Source of the DNA: Streptomyces sp. SX92
GTDB taxonomy: Bacteria; Actinomycetota; Actinomycetes; Streptomycetales; Streptomycetaceae
Reading direction: 5' to 3'
DNA length: 32,000 nucleotides
Assembly: GCF_030845235.1 (NCBI RefSeq)
Contig: NZ_CP132593.1
Span: forward strand, 2,186,082-2,218,081
The position numbers and the translations under genes were made by a program. How positions within the stretch are numbered: position 1 is the stretch's first letter; every line of letters starts with the position of its first letter. This document shows positions 3,510 through 28,992 of this stretch, piece after piece. The notes under the pieces were generated by a model. That model was not told where the DNA came from. It did no database searches and saw only the letters and a list, made by a program, of their open reading frames with translations.

Positions 3510-5105
3510 TCAGGATTTTCCGCCCGCACCCGGCCCCAGCAGGGCCGCGAGTTCCCGTTTGAGGACCTTCCCGCTCGGGCCGAGGGGCAGCGTGGCGGCG
3601 AACTCCACGCGGCGCGGGTACTTGTAGGCGGCCATGCTCCGGCGCGACCAGTCGACGATCTCCTCGGCCAGGGCCGCGTCCGGCGCGGCGCCCGGCCGGG
3701 GCACGACCACCGCGCACACCTCCTGGCCGTAGCGGGCGTCCGGGACGCCGACGACCGCGACCCGGGCCACGGACGGGTGGCGGGCGAGGACCTCCTCCAC
3801 CTCGCGCGGGTACACGTTGTACCCGCCCCGCACGATCATGTCCTTCTTGCGGTCGACGATCGTCAGACAGCCCTCGGCGTCCTTCACGCCGAGGTCGCCG
3901 GTGCGCAGCCAGCCGTCGACCAGGACGGCCGCGGTGGCCCCGGGGTCGTCGAGGTAGCCGGTCATGACGTTGTGTCCGCGGACCACGATCTCGCCTACCT
4001 CGCCCGGCGGAAGCAGCACGATCCGGTCCTCGGTGCCGGCCTCGGCGATCTCCGCCTCCACGCCCCGGACGGGTCGGCCCACGGTGCCCGGCCGGCGGGG
4101 CCAGGCGGGCTGGTTGTAGGCGACGCAGGGGGAGGCCTCGGTCAGGCCGTAGCCCTCGTAGACCGGACAGCCGAAGGTGGCCTCGATGTCCTGGAGCACC
4201 GGCACCGGCAGGGCCGAGCCGCCGGAGTAGGCCCGGGTCAGGGGCGGGCGCCGGGGGTCCCGGGCCGCGGCCTCCAGCAGCCCGAGGTACATGGTCGGGA
4301 CGCCCATCAGGACCGTGCAGCGTTCACGGACCATCAGGTCGAGCGCCTCGTCCGGGGTGAAGCGAGGGATCAGCACGAGCGTGGCGCCGACGCGGAAGCA
4401 GGTGCCCATGCCGCAGATCTGGCCGAAGGTGTGGAACAGGGGCAGGCAGCCCAGCAGGACGTCGTCGGCCTCCATCGCGAAGGGCGACAGGGCCGTCGTG
4501 TCGATGTTCATGACCAGGTTGAGGTGGCTGAGCAGGACGCCCTTGGGGCGCCCGGTAGTGCCGGAGGTGTAGAGGATCAGCGCGATGTCGTCCGGGGCGC
4601 GGGGCACCGGGGTGCCGAGGGGCTCGGCGTCGGCCGCGAGCGCGTCGAGCGCGTCGAGTGCGTCGAGTGCGTCGGGCCCCGGGCGCCCGGTGTCCCCGTC
4701 CTCCGCGTCGACCGTCATCAGCGGCACGTCGGCGCGGCGTGCCGCGGGCTCCCCCTCCCCCAGCAGGGAGCCCGCGCACAGCAGGAGGCGGGCGCCCGAG
4801 TGCCGGAGGATGTACGTGATCTCCTCGGCCTTCAGCAGCGCGTTCACCGGGACGACGGTCGCGCCGAGCGCGAGGACGCCGAAGTACGCCGTGGGGAAGG
4901 CCGGGGTGTTGGGCAGCAGCAGCGCGACCCGGTCGCCGGGGCCCACGCCCCGCTCGCGCAGCACCGTCGCGCGGCGGCGGGCGGCCAGCCACAGGGCGCC
5001 GTAGGAGACGCGCTCGGGTCCGGACACCAGGGCCGTGCGGTCGGGGCTGCGGATCGCGGTGTCGGCGAGGACGGAGACCAGCGAGAGGGTGGCGCCGCCC
5101 CTCAC
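3510..5105 (-). CDS. moeB5: AMP-dependent acyl-CoA ligase (moeB5-like; predicted 5-aminolevulinate-CoA ligase of the C5N pathway)
   Basis: 531-aa ORF with the full adenylate-forming motif set: LYTSGTTGRPKGV, GYGLTE, TGDLG, DRKKDMI and PSGKVLKREL. It is divergent from an ALA synthase gene. The start (GTG at 5105) has no clear RBS. Confidence 0.8.
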   Translation of the reverse strand: MRGGATLSLVSVLADTAIRSPDRTALVSGPERVSYGALWLAARRRATVLRERGVGPGDRVALLLPNTPAFPTAYFGVLALGATVVPVNALLKAEEITYILRHSGARLLLCAGSLLGEGEPAARRADVPLMTVDAEDGDTGRPGPDALDALDALDALAADAEPLGTPVPRAPDDIALILYTSGTTGRPKGVLLSHLNLVMNIDTTALSPFAMEADDVLLGCLPLFHTFGQICGMGTCFRVGATLVLIPRFTPDEALDLMVRERCTVLMGVPTMYLGLLEAAARDPRRPPLTRAYSGGSALPVPVLQDIEATFGCPVYEGYGLTEASPCVAYNQPAWPRRPGTVGRPVRGVEAEIAEAGTEDRIVLLPPGEVGEIVVRGHNVMTGYLDDPGATAAVLVDGWLRTGDLGVKDAEGCLTIVDRKKDMIVRGGYNVYPREVEEVLARHPSVARVAVVGVPDARYGQEVCAVVVPRPGAAPDAALAEEIVDWSRRSMAAYKYPRRVEFAATLPLGPSGKVLKRELAALLGPGAGGKS

Positions 5106-5307
5106 CGGTCACGTCCGGGGGCTCCGCGGGTTCCGGTACGGCCGGAAAAGAGGCCGTGAATCGCGGCGACGGATATTTCACATTCGGTCATCGACACTCC
5201 GCTTCGTGCGATCACGTCGAAAGGGAAATCGCGCACTGTGCAGGGCTCGCGGCGCATCCTACGATGAGGCGCGCCGAAGGGAAAGCGACAGAGAGCGAGC
5301 ATGAGTC

Positions 5308-6504
5308 ATGTCCGGGTACATGGATTTCTTCGCACGCCTTGCGCAGGAAACAGCCGAGCGGAAAAGGGAGTTCCTGGAACTCGGCCGCATCGCGGGGCGC
5401 TTCCCGGCAGCCGATACCGCACACCATGGCGAGATCTCGATCTGGTGCAGCAACGACTACTTAGGTATGGGGCAGCACCCGGACGTCCTCGCCGCGATGA
5501 AGCACGCCATCGACGAATGCGGTGCCGGTTCCGGGGGTTCGCGCAACATCGGCGGGACGAACCGCTATCACGTCGCCCTGGAGGCGGAACTCGCCGCGTT
5601 GCACGGAAAGGCCGACGCGGTGCTGTTCACCTCCGGTTATTCCGCCAACGAGGGCGCGCTCTCGGTGCTCGCCGGACGGATCGACGACTGTGCCGTGTTC
5701 TCGGACCAGTTGAACCACGCGTCGATCATCGACGGTTTGCGGCACAGCGGGGCCGAGAAGTTCATCTACCGGCACAACGACTGCGCACATCTGGAGGAAC
5801 TGCTCTCCGGGGTCGATCCGCAGCGGCCGAAACTCGTCGTGACGGAATCCGTGCACTCGATGCGCGGTGACATCGCGCCACTCGCGGAGATCGCCGACCT
5901 CGCCAAGCGGTACGGGGCGGTGACGTTCCTGGACGAGGTGCACGCGGTCGGCATGTACGGGCCGGAGGGTGCCGGGATCGCGGCGCGGGAGGGCATCGAC
6001 TCCGAGTTCACCATGATCATGGGGACCCTGGCCAAGGGCTTCGGCATGACGGGCGGCTACGTCACCGGGCCCGCCGTGCTGATGGACGCGGTGCGGGCCT
6101 TCGCCCGCTCCTTCATCTTCACCACGGCGCTGCCGCCCGCCGTCGCGGCCGGCGCGCTGGCCGCCGTACAGCATCTGCGCGCCTCCCGGAGCGAGCGGGA
6201 CCGGCTTGCGGCCAACGCCACGCTGACGCACGCCCTGTTGCGCGAGCGGGGCATCCCCTTCCTGTCCGACGAGACCCACATCGTGTCCGTCCTCGTCGGG
6301 GAGGACCGCCTGTGCAAGCGGATGTCCGCCCTGCTCCTGGAGCGGCACGGCGCCTACGTCCAGGCCATCAACGCGCCCAGCGTGCCCAAGGGCGAGGAGA
6401 TCCTCCGCGTCGCGCCGTCCGCCGTGCACGACGCCGCCGACGTCCGCCGGTTCGTCGACTGGCTGGACGGGATCTGGGCGGAGTTGGGGGCGGCTCGGGG
6501 GTGA
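5308..6504 (+). CDS. moeA5: 5-aminolevulinate synthase, PLP-dependent alpha-oxoamine synthase family (moeA5-like)
   Basis: 398-aa ORF with [31 protein letters not shown] and the PLP-lysine motif GTLAKGFG. It is full length for the family. An in-frame TTA codon lies at 5461-5463. An alternative start is the ATG at 5320 (MDFFARL). Confidence 0.85.
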
Positions 6505-6542
6505 GGCGGGCGGGTCGGGGGCCGGTTCCCCCGGACCTGGTC

Positions 6543-8390
6543 CTACGCCGGACCGGTGTCGTCCCGGTGGTCGGGGCCCGTGGTGAGGCGGCGGGTCTCG
6601 GGGGACTCGGCCAGGATCTCGTCCCAGGTTCCCGTCGCCTCCACGCGTCCGTCCCCGAGGACGATCACCTGGGCCGCGGCGCGCAGCAGGGCGGGTCGGT
6701 GGGAGACGGCCAGGACGGTGACGGGGCTGTCGAGGAGTCTGCTCCACAGGAGTTGCTCGGTACTGGGGTCCAGGGCGCTGGAGACGTCGTCCAGGACCAG
6801 GAGGTCGGGGCAGCGGGCCAGCATCCGGGCGATCGCCGTCCGCTGGAGCTGGCCGCCGGAGAGCCTCAGGCCCCGGGGGCCCACGACGGTGTCGACGCCG
6901 TCCCGCATGGCCGCCACGTCGGGTGCCAGGACCGCGGTGTGCACGGCGTCCTCCAGCACCGTGCCGTCCTCGTCGGGCAGGCCCAGCAGGATGTTCTCCC
7001 GCAGCGTTCCGCTGAACAGGCGCGGGTCCTGGGGGGTGTAGCCGCAGCGCGGGGGCACCAGGAAGGACGCGGGGTCGGCGATCGGCTCACCGTTCCACAG
7101 CACCGCGCCCCGCTCGTGCGGCAGCAGCCCCAGGACGGCCTGGATCAGCGTCGACTTGCCCGCGCCGACGCCTCCGGTGACCACGGTGACCGAGCCGCGT
7201 ACGACGGTGAGGTCCACGTCCTCGACGCCGTGCTCGGTGCCGGGGTGCCGCGCGGTCAGGCCCCGGACGGTCAACTCCCGCAGACCGGAGTGCTGTCGGG
7301 GCGCGGCGGGCGAGGGCACAGTCACAGGCGCGGGCCCGGGGACCGGCTCCGGCTTCTCAGCACCGACCGAAGACGCCGTACCCGAGGGCCTCCCCAGAAA
7401 CACCCCGATCCGATCCAGCGCCACCGAAACCCGCTGGAGCCGCACCGACAGGATCCCGATCGAGGCCAGCGCCTCGGCGAGGATCTGGAGGTAGAAGGTG
7501 AACAGCGCGAGGTCGCCCACGCTGAACGTGCCCTCGTGCGCCCGTCCCGCCGTCAGCAGCAGGACCACGCCGATCCCGAGGGGCGCCGCGTTGCCGATCA
7601 CCGTCCGCTGGACGCCCGCGAAGAGCTCCTCGCGTACCGCCGCCCCGGCCCGCGCGGTGTTCAACCGGGCGATGTGCGCGGCCACATGGTCCTCGGCGCC
7701 CGCCGCCTGCACCGCCTTCACGGCGCCGAACGCCTCGCGCAGGGCGCCCGCGACCTCGGCCGAGGCGGCGCGGGTGGCCCGCCGGTGGCGCAGGAAGCGG
7801 CCGTGGACCGCGGCGGTGACCAGGGTGATCAGGACCAGCAGCACGAGCAGCGCGGTCGTGACGAGCGCGTCGATGCGCATCATGACGGTGACCGCCGCGA
7901 CCACGAACAGCCAGTGCGCGAGGTTGGTGGGGGCCCAGGCCACGAAGAAGCCGGTCTCGTCGACGTCCTCGCCCACCACGCGCAGCGACTCCCCCGGAGC
8001 CGTCCGGGCGGCGGCGCCCCGGCCGCGCAGGGCGGAGCCCAGCAGGCGGCGGCGCAGCCGTGCGGTCGTGGCGTACTGGACGTGGGGTTCCAGCCGGTTG
8101 ATCATCACGCCGAACTGGAGGCACATCCGGGCCCCCTCGATCGCGGCCACCCAGGCGATGAGCAGCCAGACCCCGCCGCCGGCGCCGATCTCGTCGAACA
8201 GCCGCTGGAACAGCAGCCCCACCGCCAGGGTCCCGGCCCGCAGCAGCACCCACAGCCCGGTCAGGGTCCAGTAGGCCCCGGCAGAGCCGCGCAGCACCAC
8301 CCCGAGCCGCCCGAACGTACCCCGTGGCCCGGCGTCTTTTTGCGCCCGCGCCCCGACGTCGCCCTGCGCGCGCGTCCCTGTGTCCGTCAC
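6543..8390 (-). CDS. moeD5: ABC transporter, fused permease/ATPase (moeD5-like exporter half)
   Basis: 615 aa. An N-terminal transmembrane domain is followed by Walker A (GGVGAGKST), the ABC signature (LSGGQLQR) and Walker B (LLVLDD). GTG start at 8390, 12 nt after the stop of the upstream ABC gene. Confidence 0.85.
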   Translation of the reverse strand: MTDTGTRAQGDVGARAQKDAGPRGTFGRLGVVLRGSAGAYWTLTGLWVLLRAGTLAVGLLFQRLFDEIGAGGGVWLLIAWVAAIEGARMCLQFGVMINRLEPHVQYATTARLRRRLLGSALRGRGAAARTAPGESLRVVGEDVDETGFFVAWAPTNLAHWLFVVAAVTVMMRIDALVTTALLVLLVLITLVTAAVHGRFLRHRRATRAASAEVAGALREAFGAVKAVQAAGAEDHVAAHIARLNTARAGAAVREELFAGVQRTVIGNAAPLGIGVVLLLTAGRAHEGTFSVGDLALFTFYLQILAEALASIGILSVRLQRVSVALDRIGVFLGRPSGTASSVGAEKPEPVPGPAPVTVPSPAAPRQHSGLRELTVRGLTARHPGTEHGVEDVDLTVVRGSVTVVTGGVGAGKSTLIQAVLGLLPHERGAVLWNGEPIADPASFLVPPRCGYTPQDPRLFSGTLRENILLGLPDEDGTVLEDAVHTAVLAPDVAAMRDGVDTVVGPRGLRLSGGQLQRTAIARMLARCPDLLVLDDVSSALDPSTEQLLWSRLLDSPVTVLAVSHRPALLRAAAQVIVLGDGRVEATGTWDEILAESPETRRLTTGPDHRDDTGPA

Positions 8391-8402
8391 CCGCCCTGCC
8401 CG

Positions 8403-10142
8403 TCAGCCGGTGCGCAGCAGTTCGTGGAAGCGGGAGGTCGGGTCGGCGGCGAGGGTGGTCTGTTCGCCGTGCTCGACCACGGTGCCCCCGTCGAGGACGA
8501 GGACGCGGTGCATGCTGCCCAGGGCGTGCGGCCGGTGCTGGACGACGACGGCGGTGCGCCCTTCCAGGAGCCGTTCCATCGCGGGCATGAGGAGCCGTTC
8601 GGTGTGGGGGTCGAGGCGGGCGGTCGGCTCGTCCATCAGGACGATTGCCGGGTCGCGCAGGAACACCCGGGCGAGGGCGAGGAGTTGCTCCTGGCCGGCG
8701 GACATCCCGCGGGCTCCGGTGCCCAGCACGGTGTCCAGTCCGTCGGGCAGCTCCCGGCACCACTCGGTGAGCCCGGCCTCCTCCAGCGCGGCGCGCACCC
8801 GGCCGTCGTCCACCGAGGGGTCGTAGAAGGTGAGGTTGTCGCGGAGGGTGGCGTGCAGGATCTGGACCTCCTGGGTGACCAGGGCGACGCGGCGGCGCAG
8901 CGCGCGCGGGTCGAGCCCGGCCACGTCCGCCCCGCCGACGCTGACGGTGCCGCGGGCCGGGTGCTGGAGTCCGAACAGCAGCCGTACGACGGTGGACTTG
9001 CCGCTTCCGGTGCGGCCGACGATGCCGAGCCGCTCCCCGGGACGCAGCCGGAAGGAGACGTCCCGCAGCACCGGTTCGCCCGGGTCGTAGCCGAAGAAGA
9101 CCCCGTCGAGGCGGGCGCCCAGCGGTCCGTCGGGCAGCCGTCCGGTCCGGGAGGGCGCCGGGTCCACCTCCTCGTCCCCGTCCGTGCGCAGCAGTTCGGT
9201 CAGGCGTCGCACGCTGACCGCGGCCTCCTCCAGGTCGTGGAAGCGGGTGGTGACGGCCAGCAGCGGACGGCGCAGCAGCATGGCGTAGGAGAGGCAGGCG
9301 AAGGCCGTGCCGGTGGAGAGCTGGCCGCGGTCGTGCAGCCAGACGCTGACGCCGAGGGCGAGGACGACGCTGACCGTGGACAGGCTCTGGACGGTGGCGG
9401 GCCAGCGGACCGAGACCCGGGCCGCGCGGTGCGCCCGCCGGTACAGCTCGTCCTGCCGGGCCTCCAGGTCGGCCAGGGTGTGGGCGGCGGCCCCGTTGGT
9501 CCGCAGGTCCTGGGCGCCGGCGAGACGTTCCTCCAGGAAGCCCAGGAGGTCGGCGGAGGAGGCCTGGCGGGCGGCGACGAAGGGCATGGCGCGGCCCACG
9601 AGCCCGCGCAGCAACAGCAGGGTGCCGGCCGCGAACGGGGCGAAGACCAGGGCCAGTCGCCAGTCGAGCAGGAACAGGGCCCCGAGGATGCCGGCCACCA
9701 GCAGCAGCTGGGCCAGCACCTCCAGCACCAGCGCGGACATCACCGCGGCGAGGCGGGTGACGTCGCCGTCGACGCGGTCGAGGAGCTCGCCGGGCGGATG
9801 GCGCTGGTAGAAGCGGGAGGGTCGGCGCAGACAGTGGGCCACCAGGTCGGCGCGCAGCCGGTTGGTGCCGCGCCAGGCGAGCCGGGCGGCCACGGCGTCA
9901 CTGGCGACGGTCACCACGAGCAGCCCGAGCGCGGCCGTCAGGTACCAGGCGGCGACGCCCAGCAGGAGATCGGCCGGGCTGCCGGTCAGCGTGTGGTCGA
10001 TGAACCGGCGCAGCATCTGGGGCGCGACGAGTTGCAGCCCCACCCCGAGAGGGACGAGCAGGGCGAGAAGGAGAACGGACGGCCGTTCCCCGCGCAGATA
10101 GCGGATCAGAACGGAGAGCTGCCGTAACGGGCTGCCTGCCAA
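8403..10142 (-). CDS. moeJ5: ABC transporter, fused permease/ATPase (moeJ5-like exporter half)
   Basis: Track ORF 8403..10226 (-). Walker A (GRTGSGKST), signature (MSAGQEQL) and Walker B (IVLMDEP). I prefer the TTG start at 10142, which is preceded by GGGGGAGGGACGCG (an RBS 6 nt upstream). An in-frame TTA codon lies at 10125-10127. The start is uncertain. Confidence 0.8.
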   Translation of the reverse strand: MAGSPLRQLSVLIRYLRGERPSVLLLALLVPLGVGLQLVAPQMLRRFIDHTLTGSPADLLLGVAAWYLTAALGLLVVTVASDAVAARLAWRGTNRLRADLVAHCLRRPSRFYQRHPPGELLDRVDGDVTRLAAVMSALVLEVLAQLLLVAGILGALFLLDWRLALVFAPFAAGTLLLLRGLVGRAMPFVAARQASSADLLGFLEERLAGAQDLRTNGAAAHTLADLEARQDELYRRAHRAARVSVRWPATVQSLSTVSVVLALGVSVWLHDRGQLSTGTAFACLSYAMLLRRPLLAVTTRFHDLEEAAVSVRRLTELLRTDGDEEVDPAPSRTGRLPDGPLGARLDGVFFGYDPGEPVLRDVSFRLRPGERLGIVGRTGSGKSTVVRLLFGLQHPARGTVSVGGADVAGLDPRALRRRVALVTQEVQILHATLRDNLTFYDPSVDDGRVRAALEEAGLTEWCRELPDGLDTVLGTGARGMSAGQEQLLALARVFLRDPAIVLMDEPTARLDPHTERLLMPAMERLLEGRTAVVVQHRPHALGSMHRVLVLDGGTVVEHGEQTTLAADPTSRFHELLRTG

Positions 10143-10266
10143 CGCGTCCCTCCCCCGCGGCGGAAGGCCACAGCATAAAGTCGGCGGGCCGCCGTTGGGA
10201 ATGACGCATACGGATGCGGAATACATGCCACCGCTTTTTTCTCGAAGCGCGGGCGACAGGACGCCG

Positions 10267-10490: not shown

Positions 10491-11513
10491 ATGTCGGGTG
10501 ACGCGCACGACGGGGCCGACAGCACAGGAAAAGCGGTGGTCACCGGTGCCGCGGGTTTCATCGGCTCCCATCTCGTCGAGGCGTTGCGGCGCTCCGGGAC
10601 AAACGTCGTCGGTATTGACCGAAAAGCCTCCTGGGCCAACCGCGAAATCCCGCCGACCGCCGAACGCGGATCCCTGCACGCCCTCCACGCCGACCTCGTC
10701 TCCGCGGACCTTTCGGCCTGTCTGGAAAATGCCTCCACGGTCTTCCACTTGGCCGCACTGCCCGGTGTCCGCCCGTCCTGGACGCAATTCCCGGAGTATC
10801 TGCACTGCAACGTGCTGGCCACCCAGCGACTTATGGACGCCTGCGTCCGTTCCGGCGTGCCCAAGGTCGTGATGGCCTCCTCGTCGAGCGTGTACGGCGG
10901 CGCCGAGGGCACGATGTCCGAGGATGACGTGCCCCGCCCGCTGTCGCCGTACGGCGTCACCAAACTCGCCGCGGAACGGCTCGCCCTGGCCTTCGCCGCC
11001 CGGCGGGACGCCACCCTCTCGGTGAGCGCCCTGCGCTTCTTCACGGTCTACGGCCCCGGCCAGCGCCCGGACATGTTCATCGGCCGGGTCATCCGCGCCA
11101 CCCTGGAGAACACCCCCATCGAGGTGTACGGGGACGGCACCCAGATCCGTGACTTCGTCCATGTCTCGGACATCGTGCGCGCCCTGCGGCTCGCCGCCAC
11201 GCGGTTCGACGAGGGCAGCAGCGTGCTGAACATCGGCACCGGACACGCCGTGTCGGCCAACGAGATCCTCGCGCTGACCGGGGAGTTGACCGGCCTGACG
11301 CCGAACGCCCGCTACGGGCCCGCCCGGATCGGCGACGTACGGGCCACCACGGCCGACACCGGCCGGGCGCGACAGCGGCTCGGCTTCACCGCGCGCACGG
11401 ACCTGCGCTCCGGGCTGGCCACCCAGATCGAGTGGGCCCGCCAGGTGCTCGCCCAGGCCCCGCCACAGGGGACCGCCTCGTCGGCCGGGATGGCCCCCAC
11501 CCACCGGTCGTAG
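10491..11513 (+). CDS. moeE5: NAD-dependent nucleotide-sugar 4-epimerase, SDR family (moeE5-like; UDP-GlcA to UDP-GalA)
   Basis: 340 aa. Rossmann motif VVTGAAGFIGSHLV and catalytic SPYGVTKLAAE (YxxxK). RBS AAGGGGGA lies 6 nt upstream of the ATG. Confidence 0.85.
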   Translation: MSGDAHDGADSTGKAVVTGAAGFIGSHLVEALRRSGTNVVGIDRKASWANREIPPTAERGSLHALHADLVSADLSACLENASTVFHLAALPGVRPSWTQFPEYLHCNVLATQRLMDACVRSGVPKVVMASSSSVYGGAEGTMSEDDVPRPLSPYGVTKLAAERLALAFAARRDATLSVSALRFFTVYGPGQRPDMFIGRVIRATLENTPIEVYGDGTQIRDFVHVSDIVRALRLAATRFDEGSSVLNIGTGHAVSANEILALTGELTGLTPNARYGPARIGDVRATTADTGRARQRLGFTARTDLRSGLATQIEWARQVLAQAPPQGTASSAGMAPTHRS

Positions 11514-20637: not shown

Positions 20638-21456
20638 TCAGTGCACCAGGTGCCGCGGCAGCAGCCGGTCCCGTACGTCGTCGGTGTAGAGGCCGACGAC
20701 GGGGACCAGTCCCGAGGAGGCCGGCTGCTCCCGCACCGCGTCGAGCGCCTGTGTCCGCAGCCGCTCCAGGAGCGCCTCGACGTCCGCGGCGGGGACGGCC
20801 CCGGTGCGCATCAGGTGGCCGAGGTTGCCCTCGCGCTCGCCGTGGCGGTCGTAGTCGGTGAGGTCGTCGGCGATGGTGATGATCGTGCCGAAGGCCTCGG
20901 CGAACCGCCGGGCGGGGTCCACGGACTTCTCCTCGCGGCCGCAGAGCGCGGCGAGCGAGCCGTAGCAGCCGAGGAAGGTGGCGCCGTAGGTGCTGGCGTT
21001 GGCGCACCACTCGTCGAGGTCGCGGGCCCGGTGGCTCTTGGTGCGGATCTGGCCGGTGCAGACCGCCGTGAAGTCCCGCTCCAGCAGGTCGGTCACCGAC
21101 CGGGCGTCCGCGGCGAGTTCGCACATCTCCTTCAGGGCCGTCAGATGCAGATGCAGGCACAGACAGGCGAGTTCGATGCGGTTGAGGCCGGTGTCGTCGT
21201 CCATGAGGTCGTCGAGCAGCTTCATCGCCACGATGTCCAGGGCCAGCGCGCGGGCCACCGCCGCCCGCGTGTGCGGGTCGGTGATCCACTCGGTGAGGAA
21301 GTGCGGCACCCGCAGGTACAGGCGCAACGCGGCGGTGTGGGCGACGAGGTCGGGCGAGCCGCCGTTGCGGGCGACGAACTCCGTGACGTGGTCGCGGTTG
21401 TCGGACTCGGTGACCAGCATGGCCGCGGTGTAGTCCGCGGGCAGCGCGGCGGTCAC
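20638..21456 (-). CDS. moeN5: All-alpha prenyltransferase (moeN5-like; C10 addition to the farnesyl chain)
   Basis: This is the 3' part of track ORF 20638..21882 (-). Asp-rich motifs DDLMDDD and IADDLTDYD. The GTG at 21456 forms a GTGA overlap with the moeO5 stop. An alternative ATG lies at 21420. Confidence 0.75.
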   Translation of the reverse strand: MTAALPADYTAAMLVTESDNRDHVTEFVARNGGSPDLVAHTAALRLYLRVPHFLTEWITDPHTRAAVARALALDIVAMKLLDDLMDDDTGLNRIELACLCLHLHLTALKEMCELAADARSVTDLLERDFTAVCTGQIRTKSHRARDLDEWCANASTYGATFLGCYGSLAALCGREEKSVDPARRFAEAFGTIITIADDLTDYDRHGEREGNLGHLMRTGAVPAADVEALLERLRTQALDAVREQPASSGLVPVVGLYTDDVRDRLLPRHLVH

Positions 21457-22274
21457 GGCCGGTCCGCGCTGATCTCGGTGAGCGTCGTCCGCCAGTCGGC
21501 GTGCTCCAGCGCCCCGGCGAAGCCCACGTAGTCGGCGCCCGCCTCCAGATAGGCGGTGACATGCTCCCGCCGGCGGACGTTGCCGCTGACGAACACGATC
21601 TGGTCGGGGTCCAGCCGGCGGCGGAAGTGCCGGACGACCTCGACGGGGACCTGGGTGTAGCGGGAGTACAGGTACACCATGTGGAAGCCGAAGCTGCGGG
21701 TGACCGCGATGTACCGGTCGATCTGCTCGGTGCCGACGGTGGCGACCGGCACGGTGCCCAGCAGGTCGCCGGTCTTGTGGTCCTCGCCGAAGGTGAGGGC
21801 GACGGCGAGCAGGAGCTCGGGCCACTCCTCGCGGTCGACCCGGACGGGCAGGTTGACCAGGGTCTCCAGATAGCTCTTCCACACGTAGTAGTCGTCGCGC
21901 GAGCCGAGCAGCGCCGGCAGCAGCAGGGCGTCGGCGCCGCGGGCCAGGGGGAAGCCGAGCCCCTTGCGCGGTGGGAAGTGCAGCAGCACCGGCAGCGAGG
22001 TGACCTCCTTGATCGCCGCCACGTACGGCTCCATCCGGGCCTCGAAGGACTCGTAGTCGGTGCTGGCGAGGATCACGGCGGGATAGCCGAGCGTGTCGAG
22101 GAGCTTGGCCTTCTCCACGGCCTCGGCCTGCGGCACCTTGAACGGGTCGATGATGTGGATGGGCCCCCGTTCGTGGTCCCGCAGCCGCGCGAGGACGTCG
22201 CCCTGGCCCAACAGCGATGGTCCGGCCGGGACGTGTGTGCGCTGGACGAGCTGCGGTGAGGTGTTCACCGGCAT
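21453..22274 (-). CDS. moeO5: Prenyl-3-phosphoglycerate synthase, PcrB/GGGP-synthase-like TIM barrel (moeO5-like)
   Basis: This is the 3' part of track ORF 21453..22766 (-). The ATG at 22274 is preceded by AAGGGGGA. The sequence (IHIIDPFKV..., LASTDYESFE, LLLPALLGS, FHMVYLYSR, VSGNVR, ADYVGFAGALE) matches my recollection of MoeO5 closely but is not identical. Confidence 0.85.
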   Translation of the reverse strand: MPVNTSPQLVQRTHVPAGPSLLGQGDVLARLRDHERGPIHIIDPFKVPQAEAVEKAKLLDTLGYPAVILASTDYESFEARMEPYVAAIKEVTSLPVLLHFPPRKGLGFPLARGADALLLPALLGSRDDYYVWKSYLETLVNLPVRVDREEWPELLLAVALTFGEDHKTGDLLGTVPVATVGTEQIDRYIAVTRSFGFHMVYLYSRYTQVPVEVVRHFRRRLDPDQIVFVSGNVRRREHVTAYLEAGADYVGFAGALEHADWRTTLTEISADRP

Positions 22275-22279
22275 TCCCC

Positions 22280-22383
22280 CTTGTTGTCCGGCTTGTTGTC
22301 CGGTCGTGGCGCGGCTTGTTGTCCGGTGGTGGCGCGGTTTGTTGTCCGGTGGTGGCTCAGCTTGTTGTCCGGTCGTGGCGCGG
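22280..22383. repeat. Tandem direct repeat, 23-bp unit x 4 plus a 12-bp half unit
   Basis: Units are cttgttgtccggtcgtggcgcgg at 22292-22314 and 22361-22383 (identical), 22315-22337 (1 mismatch) and 22338-22360 (4 mismatches), plus a half unit cttgttgtccgg at 22280-22291. The core TTGTTGTCCGG occurs 5 times. A palindrome cggcgcgcgccg at 22381-22392 abuts the upstream stop codon. Confidence 0.95.
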
Positions 22384-22392
22384 CGCGCGCCG

Positions 22393-23475
22393 TCATGCCC
22401 GGCCGGTCGCGCGGCTCGGCCCGGCCGCCGGGGCCGCCGCCGCGGCGTTCGCCCTGGCGAGGGCGGCGACGACGGACGCCGTGGTGTAGAGCGCCCTGGT
22501 GTCCAGGACGACGGAGCCCAGCGCGGCCTTTCCGCGCCGGCCGCGCTCCCAGTGCTCGCGTGCGTCGGGGTCGAACTCCATGGGGCCGGGCACCCGGCAC
22601 CACGCCGAGGGCCGCCAACCGCCGTCCTTCTCCTGGGAGTCGAGCAGATACGACACCGCCCGGCGGACGGTGTCACGGTCCTCGGGCGCCCCCGCCAGGA
22701 CGGCGCGCAGGGCGAAGGCGGTGGCGAAGGCGGAGCCCTCCGGCTCCCACTCGGTGCGTACGGCACCGTCGGCGCCGATCCTGGCCGCGGCCCAGCGGGC
22801 GGCCGGACGCACCTCGGCCGGCACGTCGGCCCGCGGACCGGCGGTGAGCGCCTCCACGGCGAGCGCGGTCGGGTACTCCCGGTCGGGCCACCAGTAGGCG
22901 GGCCATGCCCCGTCGGGGCGCTGGATCTCCCTGAGCCGGGCCAACAGCCGTTCGTGGACGGGGAGTTCGAACAGTCCGGCGGCGGCCGCGGTGACGCAGG
23001 CGTGGCTCGCGTACCAGGCGTCCCAGCGGGGGGCCACCCGGTCCAGGAAGGGTGCGGCGAACTCCGGCAGGTAGCTGGAGATGCCGCCGTCGTCCTGGAG
23101 GTGCGCGGCCACGAAGCGGTAGCCCTCCTCGGCGCGGGCGTCCCGCGAGGCGTCCAGCGCCTCGGCCAGGCGCAGCACCCAGGAGGTGATGTCGGCGTCG
23201 CCGGGGACCTGGGGACAGTAGCCCCAGCCGTCGGACGGGCCGCGGGCCTGTTTCAGCAGTTCCCAGGCGGAGACCGCCGCCGCGCGCCCTGGTCCCTCGG
23301 GCAATTCCGCGAGGGAGGCCCCGACAAAGGCGGTGGCCCAGAACTGGCCGGGGCCGCGGACTTCGTAGTCGTTCCACCAGCCGTCCGCGTCACGTGCGGA
23401 TCGGAGGAATTCCGTCGCCCTCGACAGGGCTTGTTCCGTGGAATCGCCGAGGGGTAATCGCTGTGCACCGTTCAC
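22393..23475 (-). CDS. Squalene-hopene-cyclase-like / prenyltransferase alpha-alpha-toroid repeat protein (putative class II terpene cyclase), single domain of about 360 aa
   Basis: Track ORF 22393..23514 (-). I place the start at the GTG at 23475, 4 nt after GAAAGGAGAG. There is a perfect QW motif, RAVSYLLDSQEKDGGW (22615-22662), matching [KR][GA]xx[FYW][LIV]xxxQxxxGxW. A near-perfect second copy is RATEFLRSARDADGWW, and further DG[GA]W-type repeats occur (QRPDGAW, QDDGGI, PSDGWGY). GDADITSW (23185-23199 encodes DADIT) sits where SHC has DxDDTA. High GC3 in this frame. TTA codon at 23455-23457. Confidence 0.7.
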   Translation of the reverse strand: MNGAQRLPLGDSTEQALSRATEFLRSARDADGWWNDYEVRGPGQFWATAFVGASLAELPEGPGRAAAVSAWELLKQARGPSDGWGYCPQVPGDADITSWVLRLAEALDASRDARAEEGYRFVAAHLQDDGGISSYLPEFAAPFLDRVAPRWDAWYASHACVTAAAAGLFELPVHERLLARLREIQRPDGAWPAYWWPDREYPTALAVEALTAGPRADVPAEVRPAARWAAARIGADGAVRTEWEPEGSAFATAFALRAVLAGAPEDRDTVRRAVSYLLDSQEKDGGWRPSAWCRVPGPMEFDPDAREHWERGRRGKAALGSVVLDTRALYTTASVVAALARANAAAAAPAAGPSRATGRA

Positions 23476-23650: not shown

Positions 23651-23672
23651 GGCGGACAGACGCGCGGTGGAT

Positions 23673-24353
23673 TCACACGAATTGCATGTGCGTGCGTCGC
23701 CGCAATCGCACCGACAGGACGGCACCGCTCGTCAGGACCAGCAACGCGGTCACCACCACGGCATGGGTGACGCCGGACGCGAGGGAGCCGCTGCCGGCGC
23801 CGTCGACGGCGTAGGTGATGATCTCCCGGGTCGACCAGAAGGGCAGGGCCTTGGCGGCGTCCTTGGCCGGGTCGATCACCATCTGCGCGCCGATGACGGA
23901 GATCAGCAGCAGACTGCCCTCCAGGTCCCGGGGGACGGCGAGGCCCAGCAGCAGCCCGAGCGGCACCGCGACCAGCGTGGTCAGGACCAGCTCCAGGGCG
24001 ACGGCCTGCGGGTTGGCCACGTCCTGGTCCACGACGACGACCACGGCGTACAGCGCGGAGATCAGCAGTCCGGCGGTGAGCAGGGCGAGGGTGCGGCCCA
24101 GGTACAGGTGCCGGGGCCGGAAGCCGGACAGGGTCAGCCGGGACTCGATCTCCCGGCCGCCGACGGCCGAGAAGAGGGCCGCGGTGCTCACCGCGAAGCC
24201 GACTCCGAGGCTGGCGAAGCGGATGGCCTGGCCCGGCTGGTCGTGCCGGCCCAGGTAGAACACCAGCGGCACGAGCAGGAGCAGTCCCAGCACCCCGCGC
24301 CGGCGCAGCAGTTCCCGCAGGGTCATCTCGGCCATGCGCAGGGTGCGGATCAT
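23673..24353 (-). CDS. moeX5: ABC-2 type transporter permease (moeX5-like)
   Basis: 226 aa, highly hydrophobic with about 6 predicted transmembrane segments. ATGA overlap with the upstream ATPase gene. Confidence 0.75.
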   Translation of the reverse strand: MIRTLRMAEMTLRELLRRRGVLGLLLLVPLVFYLGRHDQPGQAIRFASLGVGFAVSTAALFSAVGGREIESRLTLSGFRPRHLYLGRTLALLTAGLLISALYAVVVVVDQDVANPQAVALELVLTTLVAVPLGLLLGLAVPRDLEGSLLLISVIGAQMVIDPAKDAAKALPFWSTREIITYAVDGAGSGSLASGVTHAVVVTALLVLTSGAVLSVRLRRRTHMQFV

Positions 24354-25024
24354 CGGCCGGCCTCCTGGGCGCGCGGGCTGAGGTCCAGCACCTGGTCCAC
24401 CTGGTCGAGCTGGTTGAGCATGTGGGTCACCACGACGATCGCCTTGCCCTGGTCGCGCCAGTTCCAGACGTTCTGCCAGAAGTCCACGTAGGAGCCCCGG
24501 TCGAAGCCCTGGTAGGGCTCGTCGAGCAGCAGGACGTCGGGGTCGCCGAGGGCGGACAGGACGACGTTCAGCTTCTGCCGGGTGCCGCCGGAGAGGTCCT
24601 TGGCGAGGGTGCCCCGGGCGACGGACCAGTCGAGTTTGGAGGCGAGTTCACGCCCGCGGCGGTCGGCGTCGCGGCCGCCCATGCCCCGGCCCGTGCCGAA
24701 CAGCGTGAAGTGCTCGCGGGGGGTGAGGAATCCCATGACACCGGCGTTCTGGGGGCAGTAGCCGAGGCGTCCGGTGATGGTGACCCGGCCCTTGTCCGGG
24801 GCGAGCAGGCCCGCGCAGATCTTGAGCATGCTGGACTTGCCGGCCCCGTTGCTGCCGACGATCGCGGCGACCTCGCCGGCGCGGACGACGAGGTCGACGC
24901 CGTTCAGGACACGGCGGCGGCCGTAGCTCTTGACGATCCCCTGCGCGTGCAGCCGGACGTCACGCCCGGCCGACGGCCCGGACGCCCCTCCCCACTGCTG
25001 TTCCGCGGGTGCGGAATACCTCAT
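24350..25024 (-). CDS. moeP5: ABC transporter ATP-binding protein (moeP5-like)
   Basis: Walker A (GSNGAGKSS), signature (LSGGTRQKL) and Walker B (VLLLDEP). I prefer the ATG at 25024, downstream of the duplicated GGAAGGAAGG, over the GTG at 25033. Confidence 0.85.
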   Translation of the reverse strand: MRYSAPAEQQWGGASGPSAGRDVRLHAQGIVKSYGRRRVLNGVDLVVRAGEVAAIVGSNGAGKSSMLKICAGLLAPDKGRVTITGRLGYCPQNAGVMGFLTPREHFTLFGTGRGMGGRDADRRGRELASKLDWSVARGTLAKDLSGGTRQKLNVVLSALGDPDVLLLDEPYQGFDRGSYVDFWQNVWNWRDQGKAIVVVTHMLNQLDQVDQVLDLSPRAQEAGR

Positions 25025-25330
25025 GCGTGCCACCTTCCTTCCGCCTTCCTTCCGTCGCCGCGACGAATGGCGCGGAATGGCGTGCCGTTAGCCTGCCACA
25101 GCCGTGGCGGCCGACCGCACCGGGCACCGGCCCACCGGGCGGGGCGGAAAAATCCGGCCGACTCTTTTCGGTCGTTTCCCGGATCATGGTGGAGGCGAAC
25201 CGTGTGCGGCAGCAACGCAATTCGGCCAGGCTGCCGCCTTAATGGGGTGCGCCTGCCCGGCGGATTCACCGAACAGATACAAGCGGAACGCCAGCATTTC
25301 GGCCACAGATCAGAAACAGGGTGACCGGTC

Positions 25331-25493: not shown

Positions 25494-26636
25494 ATGCGCG
25501 GGGGCACCGGAGGCGGACGTGTGGCGTGGCAGCGCGCGGTGGCCCGCGGCTTCGATCCGCCGCCCGCGCCGCGGACCCCGGTGACCCTGGTCCGCTCGGG
25601 CGAGATCCGGGAGGATCCAGGGCCCCTGCCCTCCGGCGGACTCGGCGTGCTGCTGCCGACCTATGTGGCGCGCTGCGACCGGGCCGCGCAGGAGACCGCG
25701 CTCGACCATCTCCTCGACGCCCTCGACGACGTCCGACGGGCCCGTCCCGAACTGCCGCTGACGGTCTGGTTGGGCATGCAGTACGGCCCCGGCGAACAGG
25801 CGGAGGCCCTGGACCGGCTGCGCGGGCTGACCCGGTCCACCGCACTGCCCCTCGTCGGCTTCGCACTGCCCGGACCGGGGAAGATCCGCACGATCAACGC
25901 GGCCCTCGAACTGGCCCGCCCGCTCGGTCACGACGGCTGGCTGTGGACCGACGACGACGTCGAGTTCGGCCCCGGCTGCCTGGCCCGGCTCGTCGACCGC
26001 TTCCACGAACGCGGCCGCACCGGTGCCGTCGGCGCCCGTCTCGTCGCCCTGCCCCGCGCCTCGGCCACCTCCCGCACGATGGACCGGGTCTCCGGCGTCA
26101 CGGTGCCGCCCGGCGCCCTGCCGGCGGCGGCCTGCATGCTCGTCGCCTCCGATGTGCTCGCCGGGGGCATCCCGGCCCGGCGGCTCGCCGACGACGGCCA
26201 TGTGCTCTTCGAACTCCTCGACCCCGACGCGGCCGACCCCCTGCACGCCCTCGAAGTGGTGCCCGACGCCCACGGCAGCTTCTACCGCGTCGCCCGCACC
26301 TCGGACACCCTGCGCCGGCTGCGCCGCTCCCTGTACAGCCATGTCACCTGCACGGCCGACTACCCGTGGCCGACTGCCCGCACCTACCTCACCGGCACCC
26401 TGTTCCACGGCCTGTGGCCGCTCGCCGCCTGGGACGGCAGCGGCGGCACGGTACGCGGCCTGAAGCGCTGGACCGTCAAGGCCGTGCACCTGACCTGGTT
26501 CTGCGCGGTCGCCGCGCAGCTCGCCGCGCGCGGTGCGGCGGGCCGCCCGTTGCGGCAGGTGGCCTGGGGCGACGAGGGCGACTTCCGCAGCCCGGCCGCC
26601 GAGACGCGGCCCGCCGCGGCGCACACCGGACGCTGA
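25494..26636 (+). CDS. moeGT5: Glycosyltransferase, GT-A-like, paralogue of the moeGT4-like gene (moeGT5-like)
   Basis: This is the 3' part of track ORF 25104..26636. The ATG at 25494 is preceded by GAAGGGA. It shares ARGF.PP, LPTYV, LPGPGK.RT.NAA, W.DDDV, PGCLA and DDG..F.LLDP blocks with the 17751..19022 product. The start is uncertain because GC3 is already fairly high upstream. Confidence 0.7.
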   Translation: MRGGTGGGRVAWQRAVARGFDPPPAPRTPVTLVRSGEIREDPGPLPSGGLGVLLPTYVARCDRAAQETALDHLLDALDDVRRARPELPLTVWLGMQYGPGEQAEALDRLRGLTRSTALPLVGFALPGPGKIRTINAALELARPLGHDGWLWTDDDVEFGPGCLARLVDRFHERGRTGAVGARLVALPRASATSRTMDRVSGVTVPPGALPAAACMLVASDVLAGGIPARRLADDGHVLFELLDPDAADPLHALEVVPDAHGSFYRVARTSDTLRRLRRSLYSHVTCTADYPWPTARTYLTGTLFHGLWPLAAWDGSGGTVRGLKRWTVKAVHLTWFCAVAAQLAARGAAGRPLRQVAWGDEGDFRSPAAETRPAAAHTGR

Positions 26637-26719
26637 CACGGGACGGCCGCCTCGCTCGGCGGCCGTCCGCACGCCCACACAGGCGGTCGCCGGCAGCGGC
26701 GGCCCGGAAGGGAGACACC

Positions 26720-27538
26720 GTGCGGACACCGGCACAGACTCACGCGGCGGTCACCGTCGTCCTGCCCCACTACGACTGCGCGGACTACGTGGGCCAGGCG
26801 GTCGGCTCGGTCCTCGCCCAGGACCGGCCCGACCTCCGCCTCGTCGTGGTCGACGACTGCTCGCCCGACGAGGCGTGGACCGCGGCCCTGCGCCCGTACG
26901 CCGGGGACCCGCGGCTGACCGTGCTGCGGACCTCCGAGAACGTCGGCCATCTGCGCATCAAGAACAAGGTGCTGGAGACCGCGGACACCCCCTACATCGC
27001 CTTCCAGGACGCCGACGACATCAGCATGCCCGGCCGGCTGCGCCATCAACTGGCCCTGCTGGAACGGGGCAAGGCGGATCTGGTGGGCTGCGCCTACGAG
27101 TACATCGACGCGTCGGGCCGGGGCACCGGCCGACGCCGAATGCCCCGCAACGGCAACCTGTGGATGCGACTGGGCCGCTCGACGGTGCTCCTGCATCCCT
27201 CGTCGGTCGTGCGCCGCGAGGTGCTGGAGCGGCTCGGCGGCTTCGACGGCACCGTCCGGCTGGGCGCCGACACCGACTTCCATCTGCGGGCGGCCCGGCT
27301 GTACCGGCTGCGCAGCGTCCGCAGCGTCCTGTACCGGTACCGGATCTGGCCGCAGTCCCTGACCCAGGCGCCCGAGACCGGGTTCGGGTCGGCGCAGCGC
27401 CGGTCCTACACCGAGGCGATGAACGCCCAGGAACGCCGTCGCCGCGAGGCCCGCACCCGCGAGGAACTGCTCCCGCTGCTGGTCGCGCCGCCCAACGACG
27501 TCGACTTCCGCCTGGAGCCCGTCGCGGTGGGCGGCTGA
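26720..27538 (+). CDS. moeGT2: Family 2 glycosyltransferase (moeGT2-like)
   Basis: This is the 3' part of track ORF 25463..27538. The GTG at 26720 is preceded by GGAAGGGAGA. GT2 signature VTVVLPHYDCADYVGQAVGSVLAQ...LVVVDDCSPD and FQDADD. Confidence 0.8.
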   Translation: MRTPAQTHAAVTVVLPHYDCADYVGQAVGSVLAQDRPDLRLVVVDDCSPDEAWTAALRPYAGDPRLTVLRTSENVGHLRIKNKVLETADTPYIAFQDADDISMPGRLRHQLALLERGKADLVGCAYEYIDASGRGTGRRRMPRNGNLWMRLGRSTVLLHPSSVVRREVLERLGGFDGTVRLGADTDFHLRAARLYRLRSVRSVLYRYRIWPQSLTQAPETGFGSAQRRSYTEAMNAQERRRREARTREELLPLLVAPPNDVDFRLEPVAVGG

Positions 27539-27540
27539 CG

Positions 27541-28992
27541 GTGACACCCACCGAACCCCCCGCGATCGGGGTCGTCGTCGCGGCTCCGGACGGCATCTGG
27601 GAGCCGGCGGTGCGCGGCCTGCTCGGCCAGTCCGCGCCGCCCGCGGCCGTCACCGTGGTGACCCCGGCGGCCCCCTCCCCCGGCCCCCGGCTGCGCTTCG
27701 TGCCCTGCACTCCTGACACGGCCGCCGCGACCTGCGTCGAGGCCGCACGCGCCCTGTCCACCGCGTACGTCGCCTTCCTCCACGGCCGCGACGAACCCCT
27801 GCCCCCCTGGCTGCGCCACCTGGCCGGAGCCGCCCGCGACGGCGCGGGCCTCGTCACCTGCGGCACGCTCCGGCTGCGCCCCGACGACCTCGTCGACGGC
27901 ATCACCCTGACGCCCGGACTCGACGGCGCCGCCTACGCCGTACGCCGTGATCTGCTGGGTACGACGGGCCGGACGGCGGCACACGTCGTGGTGCCGCGGC
28001 TGCTGGTGCGGCGCCGCGGTGACGACGGGGCCGCCACCGTGTCCGCGGCCCGTGCCGCCGGAACGGCGCTGGTGGGGGGTGTCCGCCTGACCGCCGCCGT
28101 GGCCGAGCCCGCCCCGGCCGGCCCCCGCCGCGGGCGCGCCCCGGACCTGGTGTCCGTGGTGATCCCCGTCCGCGACGGCGCGCTCACCCTGCCGGCGCAG
28201 TTGCGCGCGCTCGCCGCCCAGGAGTACCCGGCCGACTGGGAGGTCCTCGTCGTCGACAACGGCTCGACCGACGCGACCCGCGAGGTGGCGGAGAAGGCCC
28301 GCCCCGACCTGCCCGGGCTGCGGGTCGTCGACGCGGGCGAACGCGCCGGCGAGGGCTACGCGCGCAACCGCGGGATCGCCGCCGCCCGCGGCGACCTCAT
28401 CGCGTTCTGCGACGCGGACGACGTCGCCGACCCCGGCTGGCTCGCCGCGCTCACCGCCGCCGCGCGGGACGCGGACCTGGTGGGCGGCAGCCTGGACAGC
28501 AGCGTCCTCAGCCCCGCCTACGCCGACGAACAGCCGATGCCGATGACCGAGCAGACGGACTTCCTGCCCTTCGCGCGCGGTGCCAACTGCGCCGCCTGGA
28601 AAGACGTGTTGAGCACGATCGGCGGCTGGGACGAGCGGTACCGGGGCGGCGGCGAGGACATGGACCTGTCCTGGCGGGCCCATCTGTGCGGCTACCGCGT
28701 CGGCTACGCGCCCGACGCCCGGATGCACTACCGGCTGCGCGCCGAACTCACCTCGCTGGCCCGGCAGAAGTGGAACTACGGCAGGTCCGGCGCCCGCCTG
28801 TACGCCGCCTACCGCCACGCCGGCTTCGAGCGCCGGGACGGCCGGACCGTCCTGATGAACTGGTCCTGGCTCCTGCTGCACACCCCTGACCTGGCCCGCT
28901 CCCCCACCCTGCGCCGCCGCTGGATCCGCTACGGCGCCCGCCTCTCCGGCTTCCTCGCCGGCAGCGTGGAACGGGGCGTCCGCTACCTCTGA
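27541..28992 (+). CDS. moeGT3: Two-domain glycosyltransferase: degenerate N-terminal GT-A-like half plus canonical C-terminal GT2 domain (moeGT3-like)
   Basis: This is the 3' part of track ORF 26533..28992. The GTG at 27541 lies 2 nt after the moeGT2 stop. High GC3 runs throughout. The C-terminal domain has VSVVIPVRDG...VLVVDNGSTD...FCDADD...GEDMDLSWR. The N-terminal roughly 190 aa (IGVVVAAPDG...VAFLHGRDE) resembles a GT2 domain that has lost its DxD. Confidence 0.7.
   Translation: MTPTEPPAIGVVVAAPDGIWEPAVRGLLGQSAPPAAVTVVTPAAPSPGPRLRFVPCTPDTAAATCVEAARALSTAYVAFLHGRDEPLPPWLRHLAGAARDGAGLVTCGTLRLRPDDLVDGITLTPGLDGAAYAVRRDLLGTTGRTAAHVVVPRLLVRRRGDDGAATVSAARAAGTALVGGVRLTAAVAEPAPAGPRRGRAPDLVSVVIPVRDGALTLPAQLRALAAQEYPADWEVLVVDNGSTDATREVAEKARPDLPGLRVVDAGERAGEGYARNRGIAAARGDLIAFCDADDVADPGWLAALTAAARDADLVGGSLDSSVLSPAYADEQPMPMTEQTDFLPFARGANCAAWKDVLSTIGGWDERYRGGGEDMDLSWRAHLCGYRVGYAPDARMHYRLRAELTSLARQKWNYGRSGARLYAAYRHAGFERRDGRTVLMNWSWLLLHTPDLARSPTLRRRWIRYGARLSGFLAGSVERGVRYL

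Follow-up and report, generated by a model that had tools for sequence, protein, structure and literature searches.

A moenomycin-family phosphoglycolipid gene cluster with an additional putative terpene cyclase gene in Streptomyces sp. SX92

A 32,000-nucleotide stretch of chromosomal DNA from Streptomyces sp. SX92 (called the window here) carries, at positions 3510–28992, a predicted biosynthetic gene cluster for a moenomycin-family phosphoglycolipid. The cluster comprises 19 intact genes, of which 18 are homologues of the moenomycin (moe) genes of Streptomyces ghanaensis and one, called g16, encodes a terpene cyclase-like protein. We consider it highly probable that this is a moenomycin-family cluster whose likely product is set apart by its C5N unit, its sugar unit C and a cyclised lipid. 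The cluster is a further strain's instance of a known, published subtype, and the finding is largely known, in that the same architecture was published in 2020, in silico, for the sister species Streptomyces lincolnensis. A link between the cyclase and a cyclic lipid has likewise already been proposed.

Because the DNA is about 73% G+C, the raw list of open reading frames (ORFs) is crowded with false frames. Genes were called from third-position GC frame analysis of this 73% G+C DNA, ORF calls and start-site inspection, from which the identities, order and intactness of the genes can be read directly. All 19 reading frames are unbroken and have high third-position GC, and 13 of the 19 models exactly match deposited protein sequences; the encoded proteins are deposited as WLW51620–WLW51637 for Streptomyces sp. 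YU58 / S. coralus, some with Moe names. The genes form six transcription blocks, namely g03 (−), g04 (+), g05–g06 (−), g07–g13 (+), g14–g18 (−) and g19–g21 (+), with start codons uncertain for g03, g06 and g19. These calls reproduce exactly the boundaries given in the original prediction, which had described a complete but diverged moenomycin-family cluster from another producer. That description is borne out by the domains, by an identity of about 70% to S. ghanaensis proteins and by collinearity. The gene order expected from S. ghanaensis holds as well, but the expected count of twenty genes does not, as there are 19 (18 moe homologues and the cyclase).

Domains were assigned with Pfam and NCBIfam profiles, which recover the anticipated set of enzymes, and Moe reference proteins were found by PDB sequence search. 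The NCBIfam search returned generic families only and no Moe-specific match. The MoeO5 homologue (21453–22274, −) is 69.7% identical to the S. ghanaensis enzyme in PDB 3vk5 (E value 3.8e-124), and is thus similar to the reference yet distinct from it, as had been expected. Corresponding values are 69.5% for the MoeN5 homologue (20638–21456, −; PDB 5b00, E value 2.4e-112) and 68.9% for the MoeE5 homologue (10491–11513, +; PDB 6kv9, E value 2.8e-141). The MoeO5 homologue keeps the tyrosines of a VYLYS motif and the asparagine of an SGN motif, which correspond to Y199, Y201 and N230, the residues singled out in S. ghanaensis MoeO5 (PMC13096315). Both Asp-rich motifs of the MoeN5 homologue, DDLMDDD and DDLTDYD, are also preserved.

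Five glycosyltransferases are predicted: two belong to family GT2 by Pfam, one is GT1-like and two are paralogues without a Pfam match, of the MoeGT4/GT5 type. The assignment of GT5 is based on its paralogy to GT4 and its position. The predicted tailoring set is complete, with a uronate epimerase, two AsnB-type amidotransferases, a B12 radical-SAM methylase and a carbamoyltransferase. Deposited proteins that are identical or more than 90% identical are named MoeGT1, MoeGT4, MoeN5, MoeH5, MoeO5 and MoeE5. The ratio of nonsynonymous to synonymous substitution rates (dN/dS) lies between 0.07 and 0.53 across the 16 genes tested.

Apart from the inserted cyclase, the gene order is shared with locus L027 (a locus labelled Streptomyces prasinus), with plasmid pSCL4 of Streptomyces clavuligerus and with 15 loci from Streptomyces genomes. 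The resemblance to BGC18 of S. lincolnensis is especially extensive, in that all 19 genes keep their order, a luciferase-like gene flanks both clusters and collinearity extends through the right flank. A comparison of window positions 7801–29152 with the S. lincolnensis locus (L018) gives 96.4% DNA identity, flanks included, and 93–99% protein identity, and the synonymous divergence (dS) is only 0.03–0.12. Judged by its sequence, the source strain is a close relative of S. lincolnensis; the published genome-wide average nucleotide identity between SX92 and that species is 92.41%. In S. lincolnensis B48, BGC18 is described as having 19 genes, of which 18 are homologues of S. ghanaensis moe genes at 65–90% identity, with one additional putative cyclase and without hexose-4,6-dehydratase, hexose-4-ketoreductase or amide synthetase (PMC7160387). 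The window differs from BGC18 in carrying a 111-bp expansion of a 23-bp repeat and a different cyclase C terminus. It is thus not identical to this counterpart, which itself has been characterized in silico only. A 2026 description of SX92, the strain to which UniRef assigns the exact proteins of the window, lists an antiSMASH cluster as 'Phosphoglycolipid, teichomycin, 83%' (PMC13550158).

Other relatives share this plan to differing degrees. In locus L027, representing the type of S. ghanaensis (viridosporus) ATCC 14672, all 18 moe gene types recur in unchanged order at a per-gene identity of 49–88%, but this reference type has no cyclase. In Streptomyces umbrinus the architecture is the same, including a 360-residue cyclase between moeX5 and moeO5, with 80–95% protein identity; there, however, an argininosuccinate synthase gene follows GT3, and the cluster would be tied to diumycin through the production reported for that species. 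The pSCL4 cluster (L017, NZ_CP027859.1, 1421104–1461763) is collinear, with full-length homologues of B5 and A5 and 64–90% protein identity, but has a 650-bp gap in place of the cyclase and no GT3. Its GT5 homologue is in two pieces about 745 bp apart, and the split GT5 and absent GT3 might contribute to the silence of that cluster.

The genes for the C5N unit include an intact acyl-CoA ligase gene and an intact 5-aminolevulinate synthase (ALAS) gene, which lie divergently, head to head, at 3510–5105 (−) and 5308–6504 (+). Their intactness had been predicted and is upheld by the profile searches: for TIGR01821, whose cut-off is 338.55 bits, the ALAS reaches 529.9 bits and matches profile positions 16–400 of 402, and the ligase covers positions 3–384 of 384 in AMP-binding and 1–76 of 76 in AMP-binding_C. 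In moe cluster 1 of S. ghanaensis, by contrast, the ligase is truncated, no amide synthetase is present and moeA5 is non-functional, these defects of ligase and moeA5 being rescued by moe cluster 2 (PMC4525017). Full-length ALAS and ligase are not unique to the window, because pSCL4 has both. Profile searches found no dedicated amide synthetase in the window. MoeH5 transfers the C5N unit (PMC13096315), and the incomplete C5N triad is probably compensated via the MoeH5 homologue.

No hexose 4,6-dehydratase or 4-ketoreductase gene (moeR5 or moeS5) occurs anywhere in the 32-kb window, in which the sole member of the short-chain dehydrogenase/reductase (SDR) family is the MoeE5 homologue. Work by Ostash et al. 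in 2007 and 2009 is said to have established that moeR5 and moeS5 give the 6-deoxy unit C of S. ghanaensis. The predicted absence of these genes stands for the whole window, but not as a gap specific to the slot between moeP5 and moeGT5 (461 bp here), since L027 also has no moeR5 or moeS5 between those two genes. Nor does a dehydratase/reductase pair adjoin the cluster in the 15 related loci, S. umbrinus or S. lincolnensis. Because this pair is lacking, N-acetylglucosamine (GlcNAc) is likely at unit C, unless the genes lie elsewhere in the genome.

Candidates for moeR5 and moeS5 beyond GT3 in two more distant cyclase-bearing clusters (L013 and L014, positions 160–2500) were rejected, as a reading of their sequences, made with no profile search, suggests that the genes encode a UDP-sugar dehydrogenase and another SDR epimerase and not a dehydratase/reductase pair. 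This extra pair may provide a dedicated supply of uronic acid that has no counterpart in the window's cluster.

The extra cyclase-like gene in the original prediction is confirmed as g16 (22393–23475, −), which encodes a 360-residue protein that exactly matches WLW51632.1. Its GTG start codon lies behind an AAAGGAG ribosome-binding site. Pfam recognizes only SQHop_cyclase_C, a partial squalene-hopene-cyclase repeat, in the protein. An AlphaFold2 model built on 17 homologues (predicted local distance difference test score 91.4, predicted template-modelling score 0.91) has a single (alpha/alpha)6 barrel of about 350 residues without a gamma domain. In a Foldseek search with this model the top match is PDB 6ij1, a 'Prenylcyclase' from Actinoplanes, with template-modelling (TM) scores of 0.88/0.95 and 46% identity. 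The enzyme MstE was also matched, with TM scores of 0.87–0.91 and 36% identity, and phmmer gave E values of 4e-82 for 6ij1 and 1.5e-62 for MstE.

MstE, the merosterolic acid synthase of Scytonema (PDB 6sbb–6sbg), has the same organization as g16, with one (alpha/alpha)6 beta-type domain of about 350 residues and a DxD rather than a DxDD motif. This DxD motif provides the catalytic acid of MstE (PMC12414744). The corresponding stretch in g16, D93-A-D95-I-T97, aligns with GDADTT in MstE and EDADST in 6ij1. Across 17 homologues of g16, down to 36% identity, residues D93, D95 and T97 never vary, and further aromatic and His/Cys residues are invariant as well. MstE differs from g16 in its cluster context and in its substrate, which is geranylgeranyl dihydroxybenzoate; the presumed substrate of g16 is the lipid tail of a phosphoglycolipid. 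In comparisons with S. lincolnensis and S. umbrinus, g16 has dN/dS values of 0.18 and 0.14, respectively, and is thus under purifying selection. The possibility that g16 is a pseudogene was rejected, as the gene is intact, matches a deposited protein exactly and has these dN/dS values.

The sequence of 6ij1 matches a 346-residue cyclase of Actinoplanes teichomyceticus over residues 1–346 of 346 (789 bits), and the gene for this cyclase lies directly upstream of a MoeO5 homologue in a moe-like locus, the tchm (teichomycin) cluster. The Actinoplanes protein is 46% identical to g16 and has the same DxD motif, but its cluster belongs to another genus, is rearranged in gene order and additionally encodes a polyprenyl synthase and a second AsnB. 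Because the Actinoplanes cyclase gene also adjoins moeO5, moe-like clusters of two genera share the cyclase as a conserved accessory gene. We take 6ij1 to be TchmY, for which a paper in Acta Cryst F in 2019 reportedly suggested, with no assay, that the moenocinyl chain is cyclised at its terminus to diumycinol. The simplest reading is that g16 would likewise cyclise the moenocinyl chain to a lipid of the diumycinol type; we infer this substrate and product from the fold, motif and distribution of the cyclase.

Also consistent with such a role is the fact that the presence of the cyclase matches the species reported to make cyclic-lipid congeners. Of 15 related Streptomyces loci, 13 have a cyclase gene adjoining moeO5; the cyclase is also present in the S. 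lincolnensis cluster and in three genomes, BMUM01 included, that share the MoeX5 sequence of S. umbrinus. S. umbrinus is reported as a diumycin producer (PMC7284819), and AC326-alpha carries a cyclic moenocinol, the diumycinol chain (PMC4126109). No cyclase is present in the S. prasinus-labelled loci L027–L029, which are taken as moenomycin-producer type (the MoeO5 of L027 is 89% identical to that of S. ghanaensis). Intact cyclase genes are also lacking in the locus of Streptomyces lavendulocolor and in pSCL4. In the locus of Streptomyces sp. NPDC003077 (L009, positions 8770–10000), only some 27 residues from the N terminus of the cyclase (MARLVASPPKGEYVNGAQRLPLGDSAE...) are left, and roughly 1.1 kb of DNA rich in repeats comes after them. 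This cluster is otherwise collinear, and its cyclase has apparently decayed or been replaced.

If the pathway follows the established S. ghanaensis route, the MoeO5 homologue would join farnesyl diphosphate to 3-phosphoglycerate, and the five glycosyltransferases would assemble the sugar chain. The sugars would be epimerised, amidated, methylated and carbamoylated by the homologues of MoeE5, MoeF5, MoeK5 and MoeM5, and the MoeN5 homologue would lengthen the lipid from C15 to C25, forming the moenocinyl chain. Because ALAS and acyl-CoA ligase are intact, the C5N ring should be made within the cluster, after which the MoeH5 homologue would attach it, and unit C would stay GlcNAc. The DxD aspartate of g16 would probably protonate the moenocinyl chain at its terminal double bond, so that a ring closes to yield a diumycinol-type lipid, and two ABC systems would export the product. 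We infer from this route that the final compound is likely a congener resembling diumycin or AC326-alpha in which the C25 lipid is cyclised, GlcNAc occupies unit C and a C5N ring is present. Relative to moenomycin A ([M−H]− of about 1580.6), GlcNAc at unit C would add 16 Da and bring the ion to about m/z 1596.6, and cyclisation would leave the mass unchanged, a monocyclic lipid having one C=C less. The altered lipid and altered unit C of the original prediction thus still appear to be the most reasonable expectation.

A more specific proposal, which we put forward only tentatively, is that g16 acts late, on the C25 tail of the glycosylated phosphoglycerate, to give a congener unlike any described, in which a cyclised (possibly more than monocyclic) lipid is combined with GlcNAc at unit C and a cluster-encoded C5N unit. 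We know of no class II terpene cyclase shown to act on the lipid tail of a glycosylated phosphoglycerate. If late action on the C25 tail is true, the gene would offer a genetic handle on the lipid that limits moenomycin pharmacology.

Several observations weigh against a diumycin-like product being made in this strain. No regulator gene was found in the cluster or in either flank by profile searches of the window, as had been predicted, and control is therefore presumably pleiotropic. TTA codons occur in the genes for ALAS, the moeJ5-type exporter and the cyclase, and not in the moeE5 and moeO5 homologues; in S. ghanaensis the UUA codons sit in moeO5 and moeE5. A 23-bp tandem repeat of 4.2 copies (22289–22384, TRF score 157) lies between the cyclase stop codon and the moeO5 start, and its unit, CGCCACGACCGGACAACAAGCCG on the coding strand, duplicates sequence just upstream of the moeO5 ribosome-binding site. 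S. lincolnensis has the unit once, and only 6 nt separate the end of its cyclase ORF from the moeO5 ATG. The expansion is thus strain-specific relative to S. lincolnensis and could have disturbed moeO5 expression. For the related cluster of S. clavuligerus, silence in laboratory culture has been reported (PMC8788787), and our literature search found no product chemistry for SX92 or S. lincolnensis. Together with the lack of a cluster-situated activator, the bldA dependence that TTA codons in three genes imply and the absence of detected moenomycins in S. clavuligerus despite its similar cluster, these points would suit a real cluster that is silent or crippled in this strain, cryptic like the one on pSCL4. 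We regard this as possible but doubtful, given that 19 of 19 frames are intact with high third-position GC, that dN/dS is 0.07–0.53 in the 16 genes tested, that pSCL4, unlike the window, has a split GT5 and no GT3, and that S. ghanaensis, also without a cluster-situated regulator, still produces (PMC3814723).

The remaining doubts concern what the product would be. The literature reports no biochemical activity for any moe-cluster cyclase, and no enzymatic assay for the subfamily of g16 was found, in each case among the sources accessible. The DxD of g16 is followed by Ile (or Ser in relatives) rather than forming the canonical DxDD, and MstE, the closest characterized relative, acts on a prenylated aromatic acid and not on a phosphoglycolipid. 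The link between species and lipid is also loose, because Streptomyces ederensis, a reported moenomycin producer, has been synonymised with the S. umbrinus / S. phaeochromogenes group. It is conceivable, then, that g16 is not a C25 cyclase and instead uses another prenyl substrate, such as a C15 farnesyl intermediate, or has a lipid-binding, chaperone or immunity role, leaving the lipid as ordinary moenocinol or something else. We judge this to be unlikely, because the DxD and the invariant aromatic and His/Cys residues are kept in 17 homologues down to 36% identity and, in both genera, the gene is consistently located next to moeO5 and moeN5, the genes for the lipid. The gene is, moreover, present in a diumycin-producing species and absent from loci of the moenomycin-producer type, and the cyclic-lipid congeners that exist require such an enzyme. 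An ordinary product of the moenomycin A type, with 6-deoxygenation of unit C and amide synthetase supplied from elsewhere in the genome, seems quite improbable. The S. ghanaensis pathway is indeed split over two loci (PMC4525017), and only 32 kb of chromosome was examined, so moeR5, moeS5 or an amide synthetase gene could sit elsewhere, as in moe cluster 2 of that species. Nevertheless, no dehydratase/reductase pair lies beside the cluster in the 15 loci, S. umbrinus or S. lincolnensis, the authors of the S. lincolnensis study report genes for 4,6-dehydratase, 4-ketoreductase and amide synthetase to be absent from BGC18, and the presence of the cyclase would still predict a different lipid.

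No natural products other than moenomycins are known to act at nanomolar concentrations as direct inhibitors of peptidoglycan glycosyltransferases. The poor pharmacokinetics of these compounds are attributed to the C25 lipid (PMC13096315), and a cluster with its own lipid cyclase and without 6-deoxy-sugar genes represents a natural source of lipid- and sugar-modified congeners. The cyclase could also be transferred into the well-developed production strains of Streptomyces viridosporus. The practical value is modest, because the architecture has been published for S. lincolnensis and is common (13 of 15 loci) and because the Actinoplanes homologue of the cyclase has a crystal structure. The present analysis adds verified gene models and evidence of purifying selection on the cyclase. 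It also connects 6ij1 directly to the gene adjoining that for the MoeO5 homologue in Actinoplanes, and shows that the presence of the cyclase coincides with species reported to make cyclic-lipid congeners.

The individual gene models, taken from left to right, begin with the moeB5-type acyl-CoA ligase, which is full length at 531 residues and 66% identical to its pSCL4 homologue. Because this exact 531-residue sequence is absent from the protein collection, the deposited start must differ. The moeA5-type ALAS (398 residues, exactly WLW51620.1) has its TTA at codon 52. Two fused ABC exporters with ABC_membrane and ABC_tran domains follow, of which the moeD5-type (6543–8390, −) is 71% identical to its L027 orthologue. 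The moeJ5-type (8403–10226, −) may start at 10175, as in the 590-residue S. lincolnensis annotation (the L018 gene model), and has TTA at codons 17 and 34 of the longer model.

The long plus-strand block opens with the moeE5-type UDP-uronate 4-epimerase, an SDR epimerase of 340 residues that exactly matches WLW51623.1 and whose S. lincolnensis orthologue is deposited as 'MoeE5'. The moeF5-type glutamine-dependent amidotransferase (11518–13470, +; 650 residues) has GATase_7 and Asn_synthase domains and a Met-Cys N terminus (MCGF). It is followed by the moeGT1-type glycosyltransferase (13460–14671, +; 403 residues), which has a weak Glyco_trans_1_4 match and is identical to WLW51625.1, deposited as 'Moenomycin biosynthesis protein MoeGT1'. 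The moeH5-type AsnB-like amidotransferase (14668–16176, +; 502 residues) lacks the N-terminal Cys nucleophile and has only a weak Asn_synthase match; within its 90% cluster, the S. lincolnensis protein carries the deposited name 'MoeH5'. The moeK5-type methyltransferase (16247–17761, +; 504 residues) combines B12-binding and Radical_SAM domains with a CPFKCSFC motif, and the S. clavuligerus member of its cluster is named moeK5. The moeGT4-type glycosyltransferase (17751–19022, +; 423 residues) has no Pfam match, is 97% identical to an S. lincolnensis protein and has a 90%-cluster member deposited as 'MoeGT4'. The block ends with the moeM5-type carbamoyltransferase (19019–20611, +; 530 residues), which has Carbam_trans_N and Carbam_trans_C domains and is identical to WLW51629.1.

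On the minus strand, the moeN5-type prenyltransferase has 272 residues and orthologues deposited as MoeN5, and the moeO5-type farnesyl-3-phosphoglycerate synthase has 273 residues, a PcrB-like TIM barrel and an S. lincolnensis orthologue deposited as MoeO5. The cyclase, with its TTA at codon 7, is followed by a moeX5-type ABC-2 permease (23673–24353, −; 226 residues; ABC2_membrane; exactly WLW51633.1) and a moeP5-type ABC ATPase (24350–25033, −; 227 residues; ABC_tran; 98% identical to the S. lincolnensis orthologue). The final plus-strand block carries three glycosyltransferase genes. The moeGT5-type gene (25494–26636, +), a GT4 paralogue without a Pfam match, encodes 380 residues as called, but this form is not deposited, and the start is probably the GTG at 25521, giving 371 residues as in the S. 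lincolnensis L018 model; the GT4 and GT5 homologues cross-match at about 41% on S. clavuligerus DNA. The moeGT2-type (26720–27538, +; 272 residues; exactly WLW51636.1) and moeGT3-type (27541–28992, +; 483 residues; exactly WLW51637.1) enzymes both match Glycos_transf_2.

A scan of the 20–26-kb interval for promoters and terminators found nothing above chance. A plasmid origin of the window was rejected, as the sole plasmid match is pSCL4 of S. clavuligerus, at 76.6% DNA identity. Both flanks contain housekeeping-type genes. To the right (29018–31822) lie genes for a luciferase-like (F420-type) oxidoreductase, a DUF4352 protein with a lipoprotein-like N terminus and a DUF6099 protein. The cluster boundary was placed at 28992 because S. 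lincolnensis, unlike S. umbrinus, also has the luciferase-like gene after GT3. To the left (1–3529, −) lies an RNA-repair pair comprising Pnkp (kinase-phosphatase-ligase), which runs off the left edge, and a bacterial Hen1 methyltransferase. The longest Hen1 ORF (1928–3529) overlaps the 3′ (stop-codon) end of the acyl-CoA ligase gene at 3510 by 20 nt, and the Hen1 profile match starts at residue 39, so that the true Hen1 start is probably further in.

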